From Eledone cirrhosa (Eukaryota): a stretch of 64,000 bases of DNA. The notes under the pieces were generated by a model. The model saw nothing but the letters and a program-made list of their open reading frames with translations. It was not told where the DNA came from and searched no databases. A program made the translations under genes and the position numbers. The first letter of the stretch is position 1; every line of letters starts with the position of its first letter. The stretch lies in NCBI GenBank assembly GCA_964016885.1, contig OZ024740.1, positions 208,196,001-208,260,000 on the forward strand, read 5' to 3'. Positions 1,109-57,159 of this stretch are shown piece by piece.

Positions 1109-1599
1109 CATATGTATATATATGAATATATTCTTTTAATAATATATAGTTTTAATAATATATAGATTTTAATAATATATAGATCTCAATTTTAATGTAT
1201 AGATCTCAATAATTTAATTGATAATTTAATTGATAAACTAAACATTTAATCATATTTAAACACTTGTTAAAATTCTCCAGTTTTTATTATTTATTTATTT
1301 TCTATGCACGCTTATTTACTTTTCCTAACTCATCCAATAAATATTTATTTTTTCACTTCATCTTAAAAGTTACGCTAATACAACAACCTATCACTTATGG
1401 CTTTCTCTTTCTCTTTCTCTTTCTCTTTCTCTTTCTCTTTCTCTTTTTCTCTTTTCTTTTTTCTTCTCTTTCTCTTTCTCTTTCTCTTTTTCTTGTTTTC
1501 TTATTTTCCACTTAGAGTTTGCTCTTTTTTCTCTTTTTTCTCTTTCTTTTCTTTCCCCCAACGGATTATTTTAAATCTACTGTGATTTAAACATATCCG

Positions 1600-1826
1600 G
1601 CACTAATTTGCATAATAGACTAAATAAATTTAATAACCCCACTATCCGGGAGCTTCCAACAGAAATGGTCGCATTCTTTAAGAGTATGTCAATATTTATT
1701 TATAAAACTGATCTATATTATATTTTATCTGATGAAAGCACACCATAATTTAACTTGGTGTCCTTGAAATATGTATAATGAAATAAATATGGTTTTATAA
1801 ATATAGTTTCCATTTGTTAATATATC

Positions 1827-1830
<4 letters not shown>
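1600..1830 (+). mobile_element. Solo PLE pLTR fragment with HHR-like motif (family of 39446-40729)
   Basis: CTGATGA 1729-1735, stem II aagcacacca/tggtgtcctt, GAAA 1766-1769. Homologous to 40590-40729 and ends in (TA)n. Stem I register is imperfect. Confidence 0.65.
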
Positions 1831-1889
<59 letters not shown>

Positions 1890-1922
1890 GTTCTTCATTT
1901 TGGCGTGAATTCCTTTTTCTTT

Positions 1923-1958
<36 letters not shown>

Positions 1959-2137
1959 TAATTTAATATATCTACTAACATAAGCGCACAGATGTACGCT
2001 AATGCCAGCAAATACACAGGTTATGTCATAGTACCTAGGTGGTTCAATGCAGGAGGATGCAGAACAATAATATAAAAGACGTAAAATAAGAAAATTTTTT
2101 TTAAAAATTTTAAAAAATTAACTTACTTAAATTTTCA

Positions 2138-2217
2138 CTCCAACTAATTAGTTTCTGCAATGGGATAAAGACAGTTACGTAATGAACTGTTGAGAATTTC
2201 ATTGCGTCATCAGGGAG
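2138..2217 (-). ncRNA. Type I hammerhead ribozyme
   Basis: Minus strand: ctcc CTGATGA c-gcaatg..(long insert)..cattgc-a GAAA ctaattag TT ggag. Palindromic stem III. Confidence 0.85.
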
Positions 2218-2692
2218 GTCTATTCTCAGCCAAGTCTCCAGGCAATGCGCGGACACTGGGGACTCATATAAAAATAATAATAATTCGGTAAATGGAACAG
2301 CTATCGAGGACTGGATTCCAGGCACTGAAAATTCTCACTGCCACCGGTCAAATGGCCGATTCTAAAGAATCAATCACGTGACACAGAGGCTAGTCAGTAG
2401 GAATGTGATGGTAAGATGACAGACGCCTACTAACACCCCACAAAAAAATTTTTTTAGTAGTGGTTTTGGCAGGTTTGCTCGACAAATCAGTGATTTGGAG
2501 ATAAATATAGATCATTTAATATATCTACTAACATAAGCGCACAGATGTACGCTAATGCCAGCAAATACACAGGTTATGTCATAGTACCTAGGTGGTTCAA
2601 TGCAGGAGGATGCAGAACAATAATATAAAAGACGTAAAATAAAAAGTTTTTAAAAAAATTTTAAAAAATTAACTTACTTACTTAAATTTTCA

Positions 2693-2772
2693 CTCCAACT
2701 AATTAGTTTCTGCAATGGGATAAAGACAGTTACGTAATGAACTGTTGAGAATTTCATTGCGTCATCAGGGAG
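2693..2772 (-). ncRNA. Type I hammerhead ribozyme (second tandem copy)
   Basis: Same motif as 2138-2217, 555 nt away. Confidence 0.85.
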
Positions 2773-3059
2773 GTCTATTCTCAGCCAAGTCTCCAGGCAA
2801 TGCGCGGACACTGGGGACTCATATAAAAATAATAATAATTCGGTAAATGGAACAGCTATCGAGGACTGGATTCCAGGCACTGAAAATTCTCACTGCCACC
2901 GGTCAAATGGCCGATTCTAAAGAATCAATCACGTGAAATTCTCAACAGTTCATTACGTAACTGTCTTTATCCCATTGCAGAAACTAATTAGTTGGAGTGA
3001 AAATTTAAGTAAGTAAGTTAATTTTTAAAAAATTTTTTTTTAAATTTTCTTATTTTACG

Positions 3060-3135
<76 letters not shown>

Positions 3136-3138
<3 letters not shown>

Positions 3139-3411
3139 TTAAAAATGTAAACTATCGCCGTATTTTGACTAAAGAAATTAAAGAAATTATTTAGCCTGAT
3201 AGTGGGCTTAAGAACCCTCGGAGAAATGGAAAAAGATGAGTATTGACGTACATGGGAGTCGAACGGATAACCAAAGATATGGGTTCGACTCCCATGTACG
3301 TCAATACTCATCTTTTTCCATTTCTCCGAGGGTTCTTAACCCCACTATCAGGCTAAATAATTTCTTTAATTTCTTTAGTCAAAATACGGCGATAGCTGAC
3401 ATTTCTAATAA
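3136..3411. repeat. Fold-back element (~128-bp arms, 18-nt loop) abutting (TA)n
   Basis: 3136-3264 is the near-perfect reverse complement of 3283-3411. Same family as 29087-29253. Confidence 0.85.
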
Positions 3412-3442
3412 TTTCAAACCCACTCGCTGTGTGTCTGTGTAT

Positions 3443-4322
3443 GAGAGATATATTTACACCTGTCTCTAACTAAAAACATAGCCAACTGTCTACAGTAAAC
3501 TAAATGTGTGCACTCTGAAAATTTGATTGCAGCTGCATAACTGCAATTCGCCAGATTCATTGAGTGAGTTAGACGCTGTATTTATACAAGCGATCTTCGT
3601 TACTTTTGTTATATTATACTCTCGGCTGCGCTGATTTGGAACTCCTGTATAAGGTTAGGCTTTTCAGTATTTCTTGTTTATGTTTCCTAAAATTACATTT
3701 TGAGTATTGAAAATTTGAGTTTGTATCACAAATCAGATTATATTTGCTTGTATATGTGAATATATGCATGAACCTCGTTATCTATGTATGCACATGTGCA
3801 TTAAGCCGGTTGAGTTCTTCATTTTCGTGTGAATTCCTTTTTCTTTTTAATTCAACTGCCAAAATCACGTGTTATGGTCTGCAAGAAATTCTTCCTCTTT
3901 TCATTAGAGGCAGAGTTGGGGCGTGCCGTGAACTGCTGTATAGCTTATCCAATAGTGAAGGCTGGCTCACACTGCACGGAACTATTACATAATATTGGGG
4001 AATCCTGCTGAAGACGTGTAACAGGTCCGATTGCATAAATATCCCCTGATTTGACGTGATTTTCTGAACATTGCAGAAGTAAAATCTTCATTTGTAAAGT
4101 TATATTATACAGAAACGTCGTCTAGGAGGGAGATATTTACATCTATCTCTAACTAAAAACACTAGCCAACTGTTTACAGTAAACTAGATGCGTGCACTCT
4201 GAACAGTTGATTGCAGCTGCATAACTGCAATTCGCCAGATTCATTGAGTGAGCTAGACGCTGGCCGGGGGGGGGGGGGGGTACGCTGTATTTATACCACC
4301 GATCTTCGTTACTTTTGTTATA
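3443..4322 (+). mobile_element. Non-coding ~690-bp unit with a ~180-bp terminal direct repeat and one HHR
   Basis: 3443-3613 is repeated at 4130-4322. The HHR lies immediately before the second repeat. Ends in (TA)n. Confidence 0.75.
4003..4127 (+). ncRNA. Type I hammerhead ribozyme with large stem II insert
   Basis: tcctg CTGAAGA(4008-4014) c-gtgtaa...ttatac-a GAAA(4112-4115) cgtcg TC tagga. Confidence 0.65.
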
Positions 4323-4535
4323 TATATATATATATACGTATGTATACGTACATACATATATGTATACAGACGTACAGTAGTATGTATATATACATACATG
4401 CACACATATATATATGTACGTATGGATTCACCAAACATTTATTATAATGCTCGGTGTGTTTGTAAACAAACATCCCATATTAAACCGTAGTTTCTAGCAA
4501 CCAGCGTTGCTCGCTTGTTCAACACTGACACAGGA

Positions 4536-4578
4536 ACGCTGTACTAGTTTCAAGCTTGTTAGCTATCGTCAGCAACGT
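4536..4578 (-). ncRNA. Minimal type I hammerhead ribozyme
   Basis: acgttg CTGACGA t-agct-aaca-agct-t GAAA ctag TA cagcgt. Palindromic ACTAGT stem III. Confidence 0.85.
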
Positions 4579-4817
4579 ATACCTTCCTGCCAGATAGTTG
4601 AACGTCCGACATATATGTATGTACGTATACATACTTATATTTAAGTAACAGCCGTACTAAGAGTGGGAAATGAAATTTCGTTTCATTTTTTTCGTTTATC
4701 GTTTTCGGTACACCCGGCCGATTAACCCACTCGATATGCAAATTGGGCTACTCAGCCGTTAATATGCATAAGGAAAGTATATACTTTCGAACGTTCAACT
4801 ATCTGGCAGGAAGGTAT

Positions 4818-4860
4818 ACGTTGTTGACGATAGCTAACAAGCTTGAAACTAGTACACCGT
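4818..4860 (+). ncRNA. Minimal hammerhead, mutated copy (C3U)
   Basis: acgttg TTGACGA tagctaacaagctt GAAA ctag TA caccgt. Confidence 0.7.
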
Positions 4861-5169
4861 TCCTTTGTCAGTGTTGAACAAACGAGCAACGATGGTTGCT
4901 AGTCACTACGGCTTAATACGGGATGTTTGTTTACAAACACACCGAGCATTATAATAAATGTTCGGTGAATCCATACGTACATATATATATGTGTGCATGT
5001 ATGTATATATATATATACATACTACTGTACGTCTGTATACATATATGTATGTGCGTATACATACTTATATTTAAGTAACAGCCGTACTAAGAGTGGGAAA
5101 TGAAATTTCGTTTCATTTTTTCCGTTTATATATATATATATACATATATACATATATATATATATATAT

Positions 5170-49647: not shown

Positions 49648-49785
<138 letters not shown>

Positions 49786-49943
49786 ATACTTTGGGAGGGT
49801 CATGTTGCCAATAAGAAACACACGCACCAGTTGCTTTCACTTCAATTTATTATATATTTATAAATTTATAAATTTACAAATTTACAAACTTATAAATTTC
49901 TGGTTGGTTGGTTGGTTCCACAACCAGATAGTTGTTTATATAT

Positions 49944-49988
49944 AGTCATAGTCCTTTCGTCACACACTCTGTGACCTCTTCAGTGACT
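49944..49988 (-). ncRNA. Type I hammerhead ribozyme in the PLE 3' pLTR
   Basis: agtca CTGAAGA g-gtcac-agagtgt-gtgac GAAA ggac TA tgact. Confidence 0.85.
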
Positions 49989-50283
49989 GGGGATTCCTTT
50001 CTTCGTTTCTGTGCCTTTCCTTTCTTCTATCCTACGCCATTTTGTTTCTGTGTGTGTGTTGTGTGCTCAGTTTGCGCATGCGCCACATCCGGGTGTCTGT
50101 GTGTGTTTGTGTTCATTTATCTATTTGTTTATTTATTTATTTATTTATTGTTGGTTGGTTGTTTGTTCTATGTGTGTGTGTGTTTTCATTTTGTCCTGTG
50201 TGTGTTTTCATTTTGTGTGTGTTTCCATTTTGTCCTTAATTTAAGTTGTTTGTTCTATGTGTGTGTGTGTTTTCATTTTGTCC

Positions 50284-50760
50284 TTAATTGTAAGTTGTGA
50301 TGTTGCTGTTCCACTCATATTTTCTATTTAATTTTGGTTTTAATTCTTTTATGCTTACTGCCTCTGTAATTTGCCTAAACATTGCGTCTTTTCTGTGTGT
50401 GGATTCTATTTTTATTTCTATGCTCTCTAATCTACCCCTGTGTTCTATCTTAGCATGTTGGTAGAGCACAGATGATTCTTTATTATCTTGGAGGTCTCGC
50501 CAGTGTTCATTTATTCGTTCCCCTATACTACGAGCTGTCTCACCTATGTACACTATATTTTTGTTTCTACATTGTCCTTCAGTACATCTTATGCTATACA
50601 CTACATTTCTAGTTTTACAGTTAATATGGGGGCTTATTTTACAGGTTATACATTTCTTATCTATACATGAGGGTCTTTGGAACGGGTATGTCTTGCTAAT
50701 AAGTGTTTTTACGGAGGTACCAGGTCTTTCTACTATCTTAATATTAAGATAGTAGAAAGA
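50284..50760 (-). pseudogene. PLE GIY-YIG endonuclease domain, 5'-truncated
   Basis: Cys-rich linker, VVY..C..YIGETAR..R..EH, RQITEAV.I..LNRKYEW. The first ~50 codons of the called ORF are read through the inverted arm. Confidence 0.9.
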
Positions 50761-50947
50761 CCTGGTACCAACCAACCAGAAATTTATAAGTTTGTAAATT
50801 TGTAAATTTATAAATTTATAAATATATAATAAATTGAAGTGAAAGCAAGTGGTGCGTGTGTTTCTTATTGGCAACATGACCCTCCCAAAGTATAACAATA
50901 TCGGTTTCAACACACGATTTCAGATAAAGAATCTTGCTAAACAAAAT

Positions 50948-51027
<80 letters not shown>

Positions 51028-51669
51028 GAGAAAACTCAACGCTTGAACAGCAGTTAAAACAGTGTGTTGCCGCAAAGAAGTGACTGGAAGGGTAGATAAA
51101 GAAAGGCAATGTACAAGACAGCTTTGCACACACATCTTCACCCTCACCAGCTCTCAAACCAGTAAAATGGTTTCGCACGATTTATTTAACGCAAAGAAGG
51201 TCTATGTACGTTGTCCAGAGCATCAATATCGGCTCCAAATTATTAATTTGGAAACCGATTCGGTAAAGGTAACTATAGTAAGTAAAGTCAATCGTTTAAA
51301 ATTTATTTTGAAACTTTTTCATTATTTGCTAAACCTGATTATATATGTTCTGGCTCGTTAATTTATTAACCTGCCATTGAATCACATTGGCATATGGTTG
51401 GACAATACATGTGTCCCTTAGCGCTTTGTGCGTGTAGGAACACATATCCTATTATTACTATACTCCTCTATGTTGAGAAAAAATTTGGTCGCTCCGACTG
51501 CTGCTAGTGATAGTGGTGACCGTTTGACCTATCTCACTCTGCCTCTATCTTTACTTCGGCCCTTGAAAAAAATTGATTCCACTTCATTTACTCTCATCTC
51601 GGGAACAGTTTTGGATAGCGCTAGTTCGTAATTTAAATTCAAGAATTTTATATTCTTCGAATGAAAAGA

Positions 51670-51753
51670 ACCTTCTGACGAGAATCTTTCTTTGCAACGA
51701 AGGCCGTATGATCTCCGTTTATTTTTGAGATTCGAAACCGATTCGGTAAAGGT
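51670..51753 (+). ncRNA. Type I hammerhead ribozyme
   Basis: acctt CTGACGA gaatct...agattc GAAA ccg-att-cgg TA aaggt. Predicted cleavage after 51748. Confidence 0.9.
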
Positions 51754-52152
51754 AACTATAGTAAGTAAAGTCAATCTTTTAAAATTTATTTTGAAACATT
51801 TTCATTATTTGCTAAACCTGATTATATATGTTCTGGCTCGTTAATTTATTAACCTGCCATTGAACCATATTGGCATATGGTTAGACAATACATGTGTCCC
51901 TTAGCGCTTTGTGCGTGTAGGAACACATATCCTATTATTACTATACTCCTCTATGTTGAGAAAAAATGTGGTCGTTCCGACTGCTGCTAGTGATAGTGGT
52001 GGCCGTTTGACCTATCTCCCTCTGCCTCTATCTTTACTTCGGCCCTTGAAAAAAATTGATTCCACTTCATTTACTCTCATCTCGGGAACAGTTTTGGATA
52101 GCGCTAGTACGTAATTTAAATTCAAGAATTTTATATTCTTCGAATGAAAAGA

Positions 52153-52236
52153 ACCTTCTGACGAGAATCTTTCTTTGCAACGAAGGCCGTATGGTCTCCG
52201 TTTATTTTTGAGATTCGAAACCGATTCGGTAAAGGT
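52153..52236 (+). ncRNA. Type I hammerhead ribozyme (second copy)
   Basis: Same motif, predicted cleavage after 52231. Confidence 0.9.
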
Positions 52237-52699
52237 AACTATAGTAAGTAAAGTCAATCTTTTAAAATTTATTTTGAAACTTTTTCATTATTTGCTAAAC
52301 CTGATTATATATGTTCTGGCTCGTTAATTTATTAACCTGCCATTGAACCACATTGGCATATGGTTGGACAATACATGTGTCCCTTAGCGCTTTGTGCGTG
52401 TAGGAACACATATCCTATTATTACTATACTCCTCTATGTTGAGAAAAAATGTGGTCGTTCCGACTGCTGCTAGTGATAGTGGTGGCCGTTTGACCTATCT
52501 CCCTCTGCCTCTATCTTTACTTCGGCCCTTGAAAAAAATTGATTCCACTTCATTTACTCTCATCTCGGGAACAGTTTTGGATAGCGCTAGTTCGTAATTT
52601 AAATTCAAGAATTTTATATTCTTCGAATGAAAAGAACCTTCTGACGAGAATCTTTCTTTGCAACGAAGGCCGTATGGTCTCCGTTTATTTTTGAAGGGA

Positions 52700-53146
52700 T
52701 CGTTACTTATTTCACACATCCGATCGTTTTCGGTACGCCGGGCCGACTAACTAACTCGATATGCAAATTAGGCCGCTCAGCCGTTAATATGCATAAGGAA
52801 AGTATATACTTTCAAACGTTCAATCAACTGACAGGAAGGTATACGGTGCTGACGATAGGTAATAAGCTAGAAACTAGTTCATCGTTCCTTTGTCAGTGTT
52901 GAACAAAAGGGCAACGATGGTTGCCGAGCACTGTACGGCTAATAATTCGGGCTGTTTTATTTACAAACAAATCGAGCATTATAATAAATGTTCGGTAAAC
53001 CCATACGTACATATATATATATATATGTGCATGTATGTATATACGTACTACTGTACGTCTGTACACATGTATGTATGTACGTATACATACTTATATTTAA
53101 GTATCAGCCGCACTAAGAGTGGGAAATGAAATATCATTTTTTCCAT
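52700..53146 (+). mobile_element. Monomer of the 4337-5129 family with HHR at 52843-52885
   Basis: acggtg CTGACGA tag..cta GAAA ctag TT catcgt. Homologous to 4698-5129 and ends in (TA)n. Confidence 0.85.
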
Positions 53147-53294
53147 TTATATATATATACATACATATATGTATGTATGTATGTATGATGTATGTATAAT
53201 GCATACACATCGTTTTGCACAATACCTTCTTATATTTCCGGAGCTGCAATTTGTCTTCAAAGGCATGTGAATGATAGCAAACACACAAATATAC

Positions 53295-53353: not shown

Positions 53354-56300
53354 CAAAATAACAAGAAAACCCAATCACCACCCAAACACCACACAACAAC
53401 CAACAACATCAAAAAAACAATACCTCCCCAGATACCAAATAAAGAAGGTATCACCTCGCCCCTACCTCCTACACCCACTACATAGCTACCACACGGATTC
53501 CCCTGCAACAAATATAGTAATAGAGAAACATCAGCTACAAGATAGACACTACAACTTCTCCCCCACCAGAAGATACCATAGAAACCCCCACCCTTACAAC
53601 CCCCTAACATCCCCACACAACAAACCTATAACCATCATTACTTTCAACATAGAACCCAAAATACACAACTACCACACATGCCACATAGGGCCTCACAACC
53701 ACACACCAACTATAAGGAAGCCCTAATCTACCCTCCTCCACTAACCACATCCTACAACAACACAAACAGGGAACAATACAACCACACGAGACACCCTAAC
53801 CACTACGACCACCATAATACACACCATACAACAACAGCAGGACTCAATATAACCACACGAGACAACCCTACTACAACTACCAACAAGTCTACACACCCTA
53901 CAACAACAACAGCCGGGCTCAATACAACCATACGATACAACCTAACTTCAACAACCACCACAACTGCACACCCTATAACAACGTCCATCAAATCTACACA
54001 CCCTACAACAACAGCAGGGCTCAATACAACCATAAGAGACATCCAAACTTCAACAACCACCACAACTTCCGTAGTCATTTTTTAGAAATAGCACACAGAC
54101 ACAGGGTAACGAGATAACACAAAACACACAGGAGACACCAAATGTAATAAAAATCGTTAATTTAACCCCTAAAGAATTAACAACAGACCAAATCAACATA
54201 CTCTCCAAAGGTCTGAAATTTATACCAGCTCCCCAACGACCAAACTACCCCGAAATGAAGGAGGATATTGCAGAATTCTGTAGAAAACTAAGACTCGGCG
54301 AGCAATTACACGACAAATACAATGAGGATGATTCAATAGCCAGAAATAGAAGCCACTGCATCCCACCAAAAGACAAGTACAAATTCCTCGATTAATTCTG
54401 CGAACGCATTACTAATTACCCATACCACCACCTACACAGACATAAACCAAAACCAAACCTAAGCCAAAAAGAATGGAATGGTCTTAACAGTCTAAAGAAC
54501 GACAAAACCCTAACAATAAAAGAGGCAGATAAAGGGAGTGCAGTAGTCCTTATGAAGACAGATTACTACACAACCCTAGTACTCTCAACACTAGAAAACG
54601 AAACATATTACGAAAAGGCCCAACACTACACACAACAGAAAATAATGAGAAACTTAAAATCCCTAACAACCCTTTACAAAGAAGGCCTTACCGACAAGGA
54701 ATACAACTACATCACCAATTTCAAAAGCAGAACTAGCCTTTTCTACGGCATCCCAAAGATACAAAAAGGCGAAGTAATAGGCAGGCCCTGCAAGGAAGCC
54801 ACAGACATTCACATCAATATACCCCCTCCTGATGACCTTAAATTAAGACCCATAATAGCAGGTACCTCATGTGAAACCCACCGCCTAAGCAACTTCCTAG
54901 ATATTCATCTTAAACCTTTCCTAAAACACATAAAAAGCTTCATAAGGAACGACCTGGACATGCTCAACTACCTCCCAACAACACTTAATAATGAACACAC
55001 CCTACGAGTAACCTTTGATGTAATCAATCTGTATTCCAATATCCCACACAACCTAGGTATAGAGGCAATACAATTCTGGCTTCAAAATTTCCCTAATGAA
55101 CTTCCACAGCGCATCCTTAAAGAATTTGTGATGGAGGGCCTCAAATCCATCTTGGAAAATAACTTCTTCGAATTCGATGCTAAATACTACAGGCAGAAAT
55201 CTGGGACTGCCATGAGCACGAAAATAGCGTCCTCACAACGTTGTCATGGTATATTTGGAAACTACTCTCTACCGAAAAGTTATAGACAAATACGGAAACC
55301 ACTTCTACCTACACATAGAAAAAAACTGGAAGAGATATCTGGACGACTTCTTCATCCTCTGGCATGAAAGTATAGAAAGACTGATTGAGATGGTCTCAAC
55401 ACAAACTTACAATTTACAATGGAATACAGCCCAGAACAACTCCCTTTCATTGACATCCTCATCAAGAAAACAAACAACAAAGTAGAAACAGACATATACT
55501 ATAAACCCACAGACTCCAAACAATATCTTCCATTTAACTCGTGCCACCCTCGCCATACCAAAATGGCAATTCCTTATAACCTAGACAGAAGGATCTGCAC
55601 AATAGCTTCAGATAAATACACATGCTACACACGACTAGAAGAATTAAAGAACACACTTATCAGCAAACTACCCACCATCCCTAATCAACAATGGATTCCA
55701 ACGTGCCATAAAACGCAACATCCAGCAACTCAGACACCCCAAACTCAGGAATGAACCGAAACAGAAAACTCTACCATACATCTCCACACACAGCCCCCTC
55801 AACAATGAGGCATTCGACACCATCCTCCAGAACATTACTTTACTAAAAAGAGACTCAAGAATGAATAAAATCCTCCAAACATCATAAAGAGTAAAAGACA
55901 ACCTAAAAACATCCTCACACAAGCCAAAATTCAACCAACCCTCACAATGAACCCTACAGTAAAAAAAATACAGAAGGCCCAACTGAGGTATATGCATAAA
56001 TCTAATAGAAGGTTCAACATTCCACTTTAAACAAGGACAACATTTCACAGCTAAATACAACTTTACATGTGCATCTGAAAACCTAATCTATGTTTTGACC
56101 TGCTCAGGTTGTCAAGAGCACTACATAGGACAGACAAAAAACAGCCTCCGACAACGTATGACTTGTCCATAGATCACAAATCAAAATACAGGAATACAGA
56201 AAGATTGCTTTTAGTGAACTTATCGCCAATTGTGCACCTAACCAATATCCAAACTTTAGAATTTTCCCCATTTACAAATTCATAGACAACGCTTCTTTCA

Positions 56301-56540
56301 TCCATCGTACTAATAAGGAAACGTACTTCATTTACAAATTCCAACCTCTACTTAATGGACTAAACTTCGGACTAAACTAAAACTGGAACGAACAATGAAC
56401 CATAGTGCAAAATGGCTACGTTCTCTAAAGAGTTACCTCCCTCACACCCTACCTAATCTTTTTTTTTATATAAATGAATTACCCCCCTCTTTCTCCTACC
56501 AGATCACCCTGAATTACCTCCCAACTGCATATTAATTCTC
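53349..56540 (+). mobile_element. Decayed Penelope-like retroelement (RT + C-terminal GIY-YIG)
   Basis: ILSKGLKF, IKEADKGSAVV, FYGIPKI, LRPII, TFDVINLYSNI, YRQKSGTAM, RYLDD, LPFIDI, DIYYKPT, SCHP, and LIYVLTCSGCQEHYIGQT at ~56080-56140. Multiple stops and frameshifts. Starts at (TA)n. Confidence 0.92.
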
Positions 56541-57078
56541 TAAATATTTCGTATCTCCAAAGAAATACAGTTTTAGGAAGCCGTTGCTACGCAAACACCG
56601 GGGGGGGGCTAACGCCCTCCGGTGATGTCCAGCAGAAGCAAGGGGGACAACCGGAGGGCGTTAGTCCCCCCCCCCCCTGTGTTTGCATAGCTACGGCTTC
56701 CTAAAACAGTATTTCTTTAGAGATACGAAATATTTATACATATTGTATAAAGCTATGCTTGAAGCGAAATCCTATTTCTTTTTTCTTATAAGTTGAGCCA
56801 ACTTATGCAGCTTCATATGCAAATGAGATTAATCACCTTATTTATACAGACGAGAAAAGTATATATTCTCAGCTGTCTTCTAGTCCAGCAGTCGCAAGTG
56901 GTGGGAGGGACCGTCCTGACGAAGGCCAGTTAAGCCTGAAATGCATAGACGGTTGTCCCCCTTGCTTCTGCTGGACATCACCGGAGGGTACGGCTTCCTA
57001 AAACTGTATTTCTTTGGAGATACGAAATACTTATACATATTGTATAAAGCTATGCTTGAAGCGAAATCCTATTTCTTT
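56540..57078 (+). mobile_element. pLTR-like module: inverted arm plus partial tandem ~330-bp unit with HHR
   Basis: 56540-56652 is inverted relative to 56650-56737 and 56949-57032. 56692-56782 is repeated at 56989-57078. Ends in (TA)n. Confidence 0.8.
56910..56953 (+). ncRNA. Minimal type I hammerhead ribozyme
   Basis: accgtc CTGACGA aggc-cagttaa-gcct GAAA tgca TA gacggt. Palindromic ATGCAT. Confidence 0.92.
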
Positions 57079-57096
57079 TATATATATATATATAAA

Positions 57097-57159
<63 letters not shown>

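Follow-up and report, generated by a model that had tools for sequence, protein, structure and literature searches.

A dispersed tandem hammerhead element in Eledone cirrhosa as a putative new family of non-LTR retrozyme and non-autonomous PLE

Introduction

A tandem array of 483-nt units in a 64,000-nt stretch of contig OZ024740.1 from Eledone cirrhosa (hereafter the window) raises the question of what kind of element such units represent and how they came to lie in a 3.0-Gb, microsatellite-rich genome. A preliminary description, made from the letters of the window, had assigned the array to the non-LTR retrozymes that yield circular RNA. The reading favoured here, with reasonable confidence, is that the array represents a single insertion from a hammerhead family (family A) that is dispersed and non-coding, and that this family is mobilized in trans by a PLE, probably from a 483-nt circle. 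As judged from sequence, family A would be a new family of non-LTR retrozyme or non-autonomous PLE, with cleavage and circles as predictions.

Structure of the array and its ribozymes

The array occupies positions 51251 to 52694 of the forward strand and, by lag identity and the list of open reading frames, consists of 2.99 non-coding units of 483 bp. Identity at a lag of 483 is 98.4% within the array, against 25-30% at the other lags from 470 to 494, and the units differ from one another at 11 (units 1 and 2), 4 (units 2 and 3) and 7 (units 1 and 3) positions. The hammerhead GAAA stands at 51251, 51734 and 52217, the predicted GUA cleavage sites follow 51265, 51748 and 52231, and the array ends 5 nt before the position at which the next GAAA would stand. 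The earlier account of almost exactly three permuted, near-identical units, which start at a GAAA, stop 5 nt short of the next and carry predicted sites (the first in a half ribozyme) exactly 483 nt apart, was reproduced in all of these coordinates. A credible ORF is absent from the unit (the longest frame in the array is 90 aa from stop to stop, and the best tblastx match has an E value of 0.14), and no LTR pair surrounds an internal region. A scan of the unit for promoter motifs gave loose A/B-box and TATA-like matches, from which nothing is drawn.

As in retrozymes, the tandem units are a few hundred bp long and carry type I hammerheads, here as two complete motifs and two halves. The complete motifs lie on the forward strand at 51670-51753 (core 51675-51681, GAAA at 51734, predicted cut after 51748) and 52153-52236 (core 52158-52164, GAAA at 52217, predicted cut after 52231). 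They are preceded by a 3' half at 51251-51270 (+), which comprises the GAAA, stem III, the GUA site after 51265 and the 3' strand of stem I and could be cleaved only in trans or as a dimer, and are followed by a 5' half at 52636-52694 (+), which has a core at 52641 and lacks the GAAA and stem III. Three units with hammerheads had been claimed, and this holds for the two complete motifs, the first site being a 3' half and the third core a 5' half. As only two ribozymes are complete, at most one monomer is predicted to be releasable in cis, namely the 483-nt RNA, linear or circular, that lies between them (51749-52231, +).

Stem I has 5 bp, stem II has six Watson-Crick pairs and one G-U pair, and stem III has 4 bp, including A15.1-U16.1, closed by the loop AUU; loop II is an extension of about 38 nt. 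A distal stem I for a loop 1-loop 2 contact was found neither by eye nor in the folds, and mussel retrozymes likewise lack most of the nucleotides that make this contact (PMC7229834). The hammerhead is the MFE fold in both complete 106-nt regions, as a marginal local fold (MFE frequency 1% and 7%, z 0.71 and -1.06), and a private G>A in hammerhead 1 weakens the loop-II hairpin. When one unit was base-shuffled 20,000 times, such a motif never appeared. Rfam gave no match at the gathering threshold, and the hammerhead was absent from the six weak matches at E<=10, a miss that is probably due to the long loop II. The ribozymes had been called canonical, a term that fits the core and sits less well with a loop II of about 38 nt, a distal stem I that was not seen and a motif to which Rfam is blind. 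Predicted circular monomers out-folded 40 of 40 shuffles (z -2.4 and -3.7), and stem I is predicted to be blocked inside the circular fold, which would protect the circle.

Distribution of the family and conservation of the ribozyme

With one unit as the query, 2,595 candidates were obtained in the genome, and the 40 that were scored gave 148 matches, with the full-length ones at 94-100% identity. Genome-wide, 259 exact occurrences of the 25-nt ribozyme strand were counted, against none for the control. Sister variants with 1-6 nt in loop III account for 2,717 occurrences and a loop-less palindromic variant for 556. Identity between the sister subfamilies and the window unit is about 70-90%, and loop III in these subfamilies is mostly palindromic, a likeness to dimer-acting ribozymes (PMC4209133). 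Genome-wide copy number had been named as a check and a single-locus duplication as the contrary result; what was found is a dispersed, multi-copy family. A literature search, in which subscription papers were mostly outside scope, returned no description of family A, and the supplements of PMC7229834 and 10.64898/2026.07.22.740005 may list relatives.

Compensatory change was examined in an alignment of 24 hand-picked, related rows from across the subfamilies, in which the invariance of stem III was built in by the search patterns. Both sides had changed in 8 of the 20 stem pairs, and double-change cells numbered 52 against 15.3 in shuffles (0/500). Three measures were equalled in 0/500 shuffles, two count measures were not significant (32/500 and 428/500), and the signal vanished once the pairing partners were slid. 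The ribozyme structure would accordingly seem to have been kept through compensatory change across subfamilies. Together with the dispersal and the non-coding unit, these changes support the assignment to the non-LTR-retrozyme type.

Longer arrays of relatives were observed at other loci. At L238 (G000:C1:82115500-82122000, positions 1241-5105), nine intact ribozymes stand at 483-nt spacing in units that are 99.8-100% alike between neighbours, 86% identical to the window unit and terminated by a normal +81 end (see below); this sister array is much younger than the window copy. L165 (G000:C1:176443000-176452999) carries an array from the loop-less palindromic subfamily, with about 19 units or more in tandem (~486 nt each; about 70% identical to the window unit), and at L166-L167 (G000:C3:88917000-88936000) a family A insertion has been multiplied at least eight times within a larger local duplication.

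Insertion footprint

The main diagnostic of the family, which the preliminary description had missed, is the footprint of its insertions. This was read from 127 segments at 86 loci, comprising the 26 best full-length matches (including the window copy) and 60 pattern loci, which came from the first 100 listed pattern matches, with 11 duplicate loci dropped. Because loci entered the set through an intact cut site or through a full unit, the crossing counts and the lack of ends at the cut site are both inflated. Counted from that site, the 3' ends lie at +77-84 in 79 of the 127 segments, at +187-197 in 33 and elsewhere in 15, so ends at +81 or +190/197 together account for 112. A TA tract adjoins the end in 110 segments. 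No segment ends at the cut site (0/127, among loci selected as above), and 31 cross it at least twice, up to four times, counts that the selection inflates. The 5' ends are scattered over positions 1-452 (86 loci), and an inverted arm is present in 34 of the 86 loci. Among the 33 head-to-head pairs, 23 join a short to a long end, two join short to short, none joins long to long and eight involve another end; the short and long combination thus makes up 23 of 25 two-armed insertions (p=8e-6 versus independent ends).

These properties can be set beside those of PLEs, for which a bias towards microsatellites has been described, together with partial tandems, 5' copies in inverted orientation and a tail restricted to one end (PMC8557442). 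A purified anole PLE cleaves both strands of AT-rich DNA and initiates within its RNA at two tail-defining sites, which lie 111-118 nt into an ORF that has the HHR cut at +26 (PMC11167929); by subtraction of these figures, it starts about 85-92 nt past the HHR cut, near the +81 of family A. The two preferred ends of family A, +81 and +190, are taken to be reverse-transcription start sites, and the 109 nt between them to be the equivalent of the PLE 'tail'. The family also has 5' truncation, partial tandems and an inverted 5' arm, and an AT-rich or microsatellite target. Fixed 3' ends, (TA)n targets, inverted arms and short/long pairing together constitute a PLE signature of the kind reported (PMC8557442, PMC11167929).

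The footprint also bears on the proposal that the units belong to a satellite or MITE at the DNA level, their hammerhead-like motif having arisen by chance. This would agree with the lack of an Rfam match and with the lack of A-to-I editing scars, no A>G excess having been found (43/7006, versus 64/9734 for T>C; p=0.77). It is nonetheless barely credible, in view of the empty set of 20,000 shuffles, the covariation and the polar ends, with 3' fixed and 5' variable, that retrotransposition gives.

Junctions and age of the window copy

Two internal 3' ends with a one-sided tail characterize family A and not the window copy. In the latter the usual ends are internal, at 51829 (+81) and 51938 (+190) on the forward strand, and recur at 51346/51455 and 52312/52421. 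The actual 3' end is at +463, and is followed by 28 nt of filler (52695-52722) and by one unit (~428 nt; 52723-53150, +) of family B, a further hammerhead element that is unrelated to family A and has a minimal ribozyme at 52843-52885. Over 23 nt, the filler matches PLE reverse-transcriptase DNA in antisense, with 2-3 mismatches, at three other places in the genome; it also repeats short local motifs, which explain it equally well, and the match is a weak hint. Family B is very abundant in the genome, and its unit in the window ends normally in (TA)n. Out of 288 positions, this unit departs from its own majority at 10, the figure for family A being about 6 in 483; this suggests, without being decisive, that family B is older than A or that the unit belongs to another subfamily. 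A second, two-armed family B copy, 84-88% identical to the unit beside the array, was observed at 4329-5134 of the window.

At the 5' junction, a 17-nt interrupted palindrome (51235-51251) is likely to be fold-back filler, and the 5' end of the array looks like an ordinary truncation beside it. The left flank (51023-51189) was considered as a part of family A and rejected, since it is a copy of a different and older repeat and bears an internal deletion. The near-integer length of the array had been read as a mark of rolling-circle origin. This was not upheld, as the 3' end at +463 abuts filler and family B and the ends of the family are at +81 or +190/197; the length is put down to chance, a truncation point and a secondary junction having happened to fall in this way (by a rough estimate, 13 in 483). 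In the loop-less subfamily (L091-L120), the 5' junction lies a few bases from the ribozyme GAAA in about six of 30 loci by eye, as in the window copy, and such junctions are a possible truncation hotspot. No TSD was seen at the window copy, and the (TA)n targets of the family hide TSDs.

The array had been put forward as the best candidate for an active system in the window. Substitutions number 8, 7 and 3 in the three units, the mean for the family being 6.5 (44 near-full units), and the window copy is of average age. Its private bases also include 50A, 120T, 135A and 361A. The rare bases 28C and 267T are common to all three units, and 220T>G is found in units 2 and 3 and is absent from unit 1, so that one round of local duplication is possible. 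An insertion of one or two units might thus have gained its third unit through unequal crossing-over or a local tandem duplication, which is compatible with the mechanism of the family; the length of the array would then be uninformative about RNA. The shared 220T>G favours such an event, as do the nested variants among adjacent units at another locus (L175) and the atypical ends of the window array. It is entertained as a tentative possibility: 220T>G is a single site, and one that recurs in five loci; moreover, unit 2 is no mosaic of units 1 and 3 and has four private changes, and 28C and 267T stand in all three units, as from one template. If transcribed, the window copy could yield one monomer, and hammerhead 1 carries the weakening change. 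The window locus itself is an average, damaged copy.

Candidate PLE partners

A search for GIY-YIG gave 10,597 candidates, among which 30 loci were examined. Three of these 30 (L045, L049 and L052) represent one PLE family with RT and GIY-YIG (RVT_1 at E 5e-6, below the curated cut-off; GIY-YIG at E 1e-8). Its pLTR has a hammerhead core of the U3-A8 variant, which is known from PLEs (PMC4209133), and the strand GAAACCGGUA/AAGG; the strand GAAACCG..GUA/AAGG is common to this PLE and family A. In copies of the PLE, the ends lie near +76 and +141 within (TA)n, and one case (L197) is a two-armed pair. Homology between its tail and that of family A was rejected as being at chance level, the alignments having been equalled by 252/300 and 231/300 shuffles. 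With the ribozyme strand and the end geometry alone in common, it is a plausible, not an identified, partner of family A. At L084 (1521-1800), a short end of family A is joined straight to a fragment of the pLTR of this PLE. A KKCGRS-like 17-mer common to the unit and to PLE coding DNA was also rejected, as the matching G is a minor variant, present in 4 of 64 other copies, and tblastx gave an E value of 0.95.

PLEs also lie near the array, and the units might be pseudo-LTRs of an autonomous one, such as the broken PLE at 54075-57100 (+), whose RT-like and GIY-YIG frames are in pieces and which ends in (TA)n. PLEs do bear hammerheads in their pLTRs (PMC4209133), and a PLE ORF on the same strand lies 1.4 kb downstream of the array. 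This reading is nevertheless very unlikely. The neighbouring PLE was rejected as the parent of the array because it is not similar to the unit and has a different minimal hammerhead of its own, at 56916. In family A, no RT and GIY-YIG ORF between pLTRs was found, no copy was seen to run on into an ORF in the 86 loci, where PLE protein matches lay in the flanks, and 110 of 127 segments end in TA tracts.

Two further elements of the window were observed. A 5'-truncated 3' fragment of a PLE (49778-50919; GIY-YIG PF01541, E 8e-5, at 50284-50919 on the minus strand) has 135-nt inverted arms (49778-49912 and 50767-50901) that lie between tracts of (TA)n, and it includes a long palindrome (about 50717-50770). 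A two-armed tandem element at 1944-3069, with a period of ~553 and ends in (TA)n, has an AT-rich tail hairpin in common with family A (~80% over 43-51 nt) and a minus-strand CUGAUGA..GAAA motif that could not be closed into a full hammerhead.

A model for mobilization

For family A, a PLE enzyme, an RNA intermediate and a circular template are postulated. In this model, the endonuclease of a PLE would open (TA)n with a nick. The reverse transcriptase of the PLE would begin within the RNA, at 81 or 190 nt downstream from the cut site of the ribozyme, and would continue through at least one ribozyme site, probably round a 483-nt circle made by the predicted self-cleavage and ligation. At the window locus, the normal 3' end would have been replaced by the filler and the family B unit, either in a later insertion or repair event or by a template jump.

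Given mobilization by a PLE, a circular template is somewhat favoured. It is supported by the repeated crossing of the cut site, by variants found on both arms, by the nine-ribozyme array at L238 and by the circular fold; it is weakened by the majority of unshared variants, the duplication at L175, the lack of an A>G excess, the use of uncut RNA by the anole PLE and the failure of eight of nine predicted Xenopus dimers to cleave. The variants in question are locus-private ones, of which 36 are shared within a locus and 307 are not; some are common to both arms (L005, L009, L018 and L195), and at L175 nested sharing among adjacent units points to local duplication.

The same PLE-driven family could instead have used uncut linear multimers from tandem source loci as the template, the ribozyme being slow or protein-dependent and circles having no part in insertion. 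For the anole PLE, the dominant substrate was unprocessed linear RNA and HHR cleavage was dispensable: HHR mutants left insertion unaffected, and RNA-seq ends were absent at the cut site (PMC11167929). The marginal local folding of the hammerhead and the existence of long, source-like arrays (L165 and L238) point the same way. Such a template is considered unlikely, as transcripts would have to stay uncut over up to nine intact, conserved ribozymes, as the stems in the family have been kept through compensatory change, and as coral, mussel and axolotl retrozymes accumulate as circles (PMC7229834).

The preferred model, with a PLE acting in trans and a probable circle, also has a more elaborate and distinctly doubtful form. 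In this, a dimeric PLE enzyme would roll, from both strands of a break in (TA)n, round an RNA circle made by the ribozyme, with two starts 109 nt apart, and the window locus would be a single chimeric event in which one family B unit was copied, a scrap of PLE RNA picked up and, after a jump, a family A circle traversed three times. If true, this would be template switching between two retrozyme circles; the 109-nt spacing is about three times the known PLE tail.

The mobilization of animal retrozymes by PLEs, with circles as the template, has been proposed without demonstration (PMC7229834, 10.64898/2026.07.22.740005, PMC4209133). Family A offers exact predicted starts (+81 and +190), sister arrays that are very young and, in the same genome, a candidate enzyme, which together open the PLE/circle step to the in vitro assay of PMC11167929.

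Comparison with known systems

The Chlamys non-autonomous PLEs, such as MRC1 (PMC8557442), resemble family A in their non-autonomy, head-to-tail insertions in multiple copies and pLTR-like structure. They differ in lacking canonical hammerheads and in having 3' sequence in common with an autonomous partner; for family A, common sequence with the candidate partner was not found beyond the ribozyme strand among the 30 of 10,597 GIY-YIG candidates examined.

Family A is like EN+ PLEs (PMC8557442, PMC11167929, PMC4209133, PMC3846280) in its partial tandems, 5' truncation and inverted 5' arm, in its two internal 3' ends with a one-sided tail and in its AT-rich or microsatellite targets. A helix II of 7 bp and a helix I of 5 bp are as in the minimal ribozymes of PLEs, and the palindromic loop III of the sister subfamilies is a further likeness. 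Unlike EN+ PLEs, family A is without an RT or GIY-YIG ORF, its tail is 109 nt as against 30-40 bp, and its stem III, at 4 bp, is longer than that of the minimal PLE ribozymes.

With the metazoan non-LTR retrozymes (PMC7229834; 10.64898/2026.07.22.740005), family A has in common tandem units that are non-coding and each carry a single type I hammerhead, a low GC content, dispersal, a self-paired predicted circle and co-existing PLEs. The unit of 483 nt is longer than the 170-400 nt of Cervera and de la Pena 2020 (PMC7229834) and falls within the 51-972 bp of the 2026 survey (10.64898/2026.07.22.740005), and the array fits the pattern of two consecutive complete motifs of Li, Clavereau and Pollet 2026 (10.64898/2026.07.22.740005). 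Eight of nine predicted Xenopus dimers failed to cleave in vitro (bioRxiv 2026.07.22.740005). Unlike metazoan retrozymes, family A has a long loop II and no evident loop 1-loop 2 contact, and stem I is predicted to be blocked in its circle, whereas most metazoan circles leave it free (PMC7229834). Fixed internal 3' ends and paired short and long arms are features of family A that the available text of these two accounts does not describe for retrozymes, and paired short/long ends in retrozymes were likewise absent from the literature searched, mostly without subscription papers. On its sequence, family A is well supported as a new family of a known kind; it has every retrozyme feature that could be decided from sequence and would work like a non-autonomous PLE.
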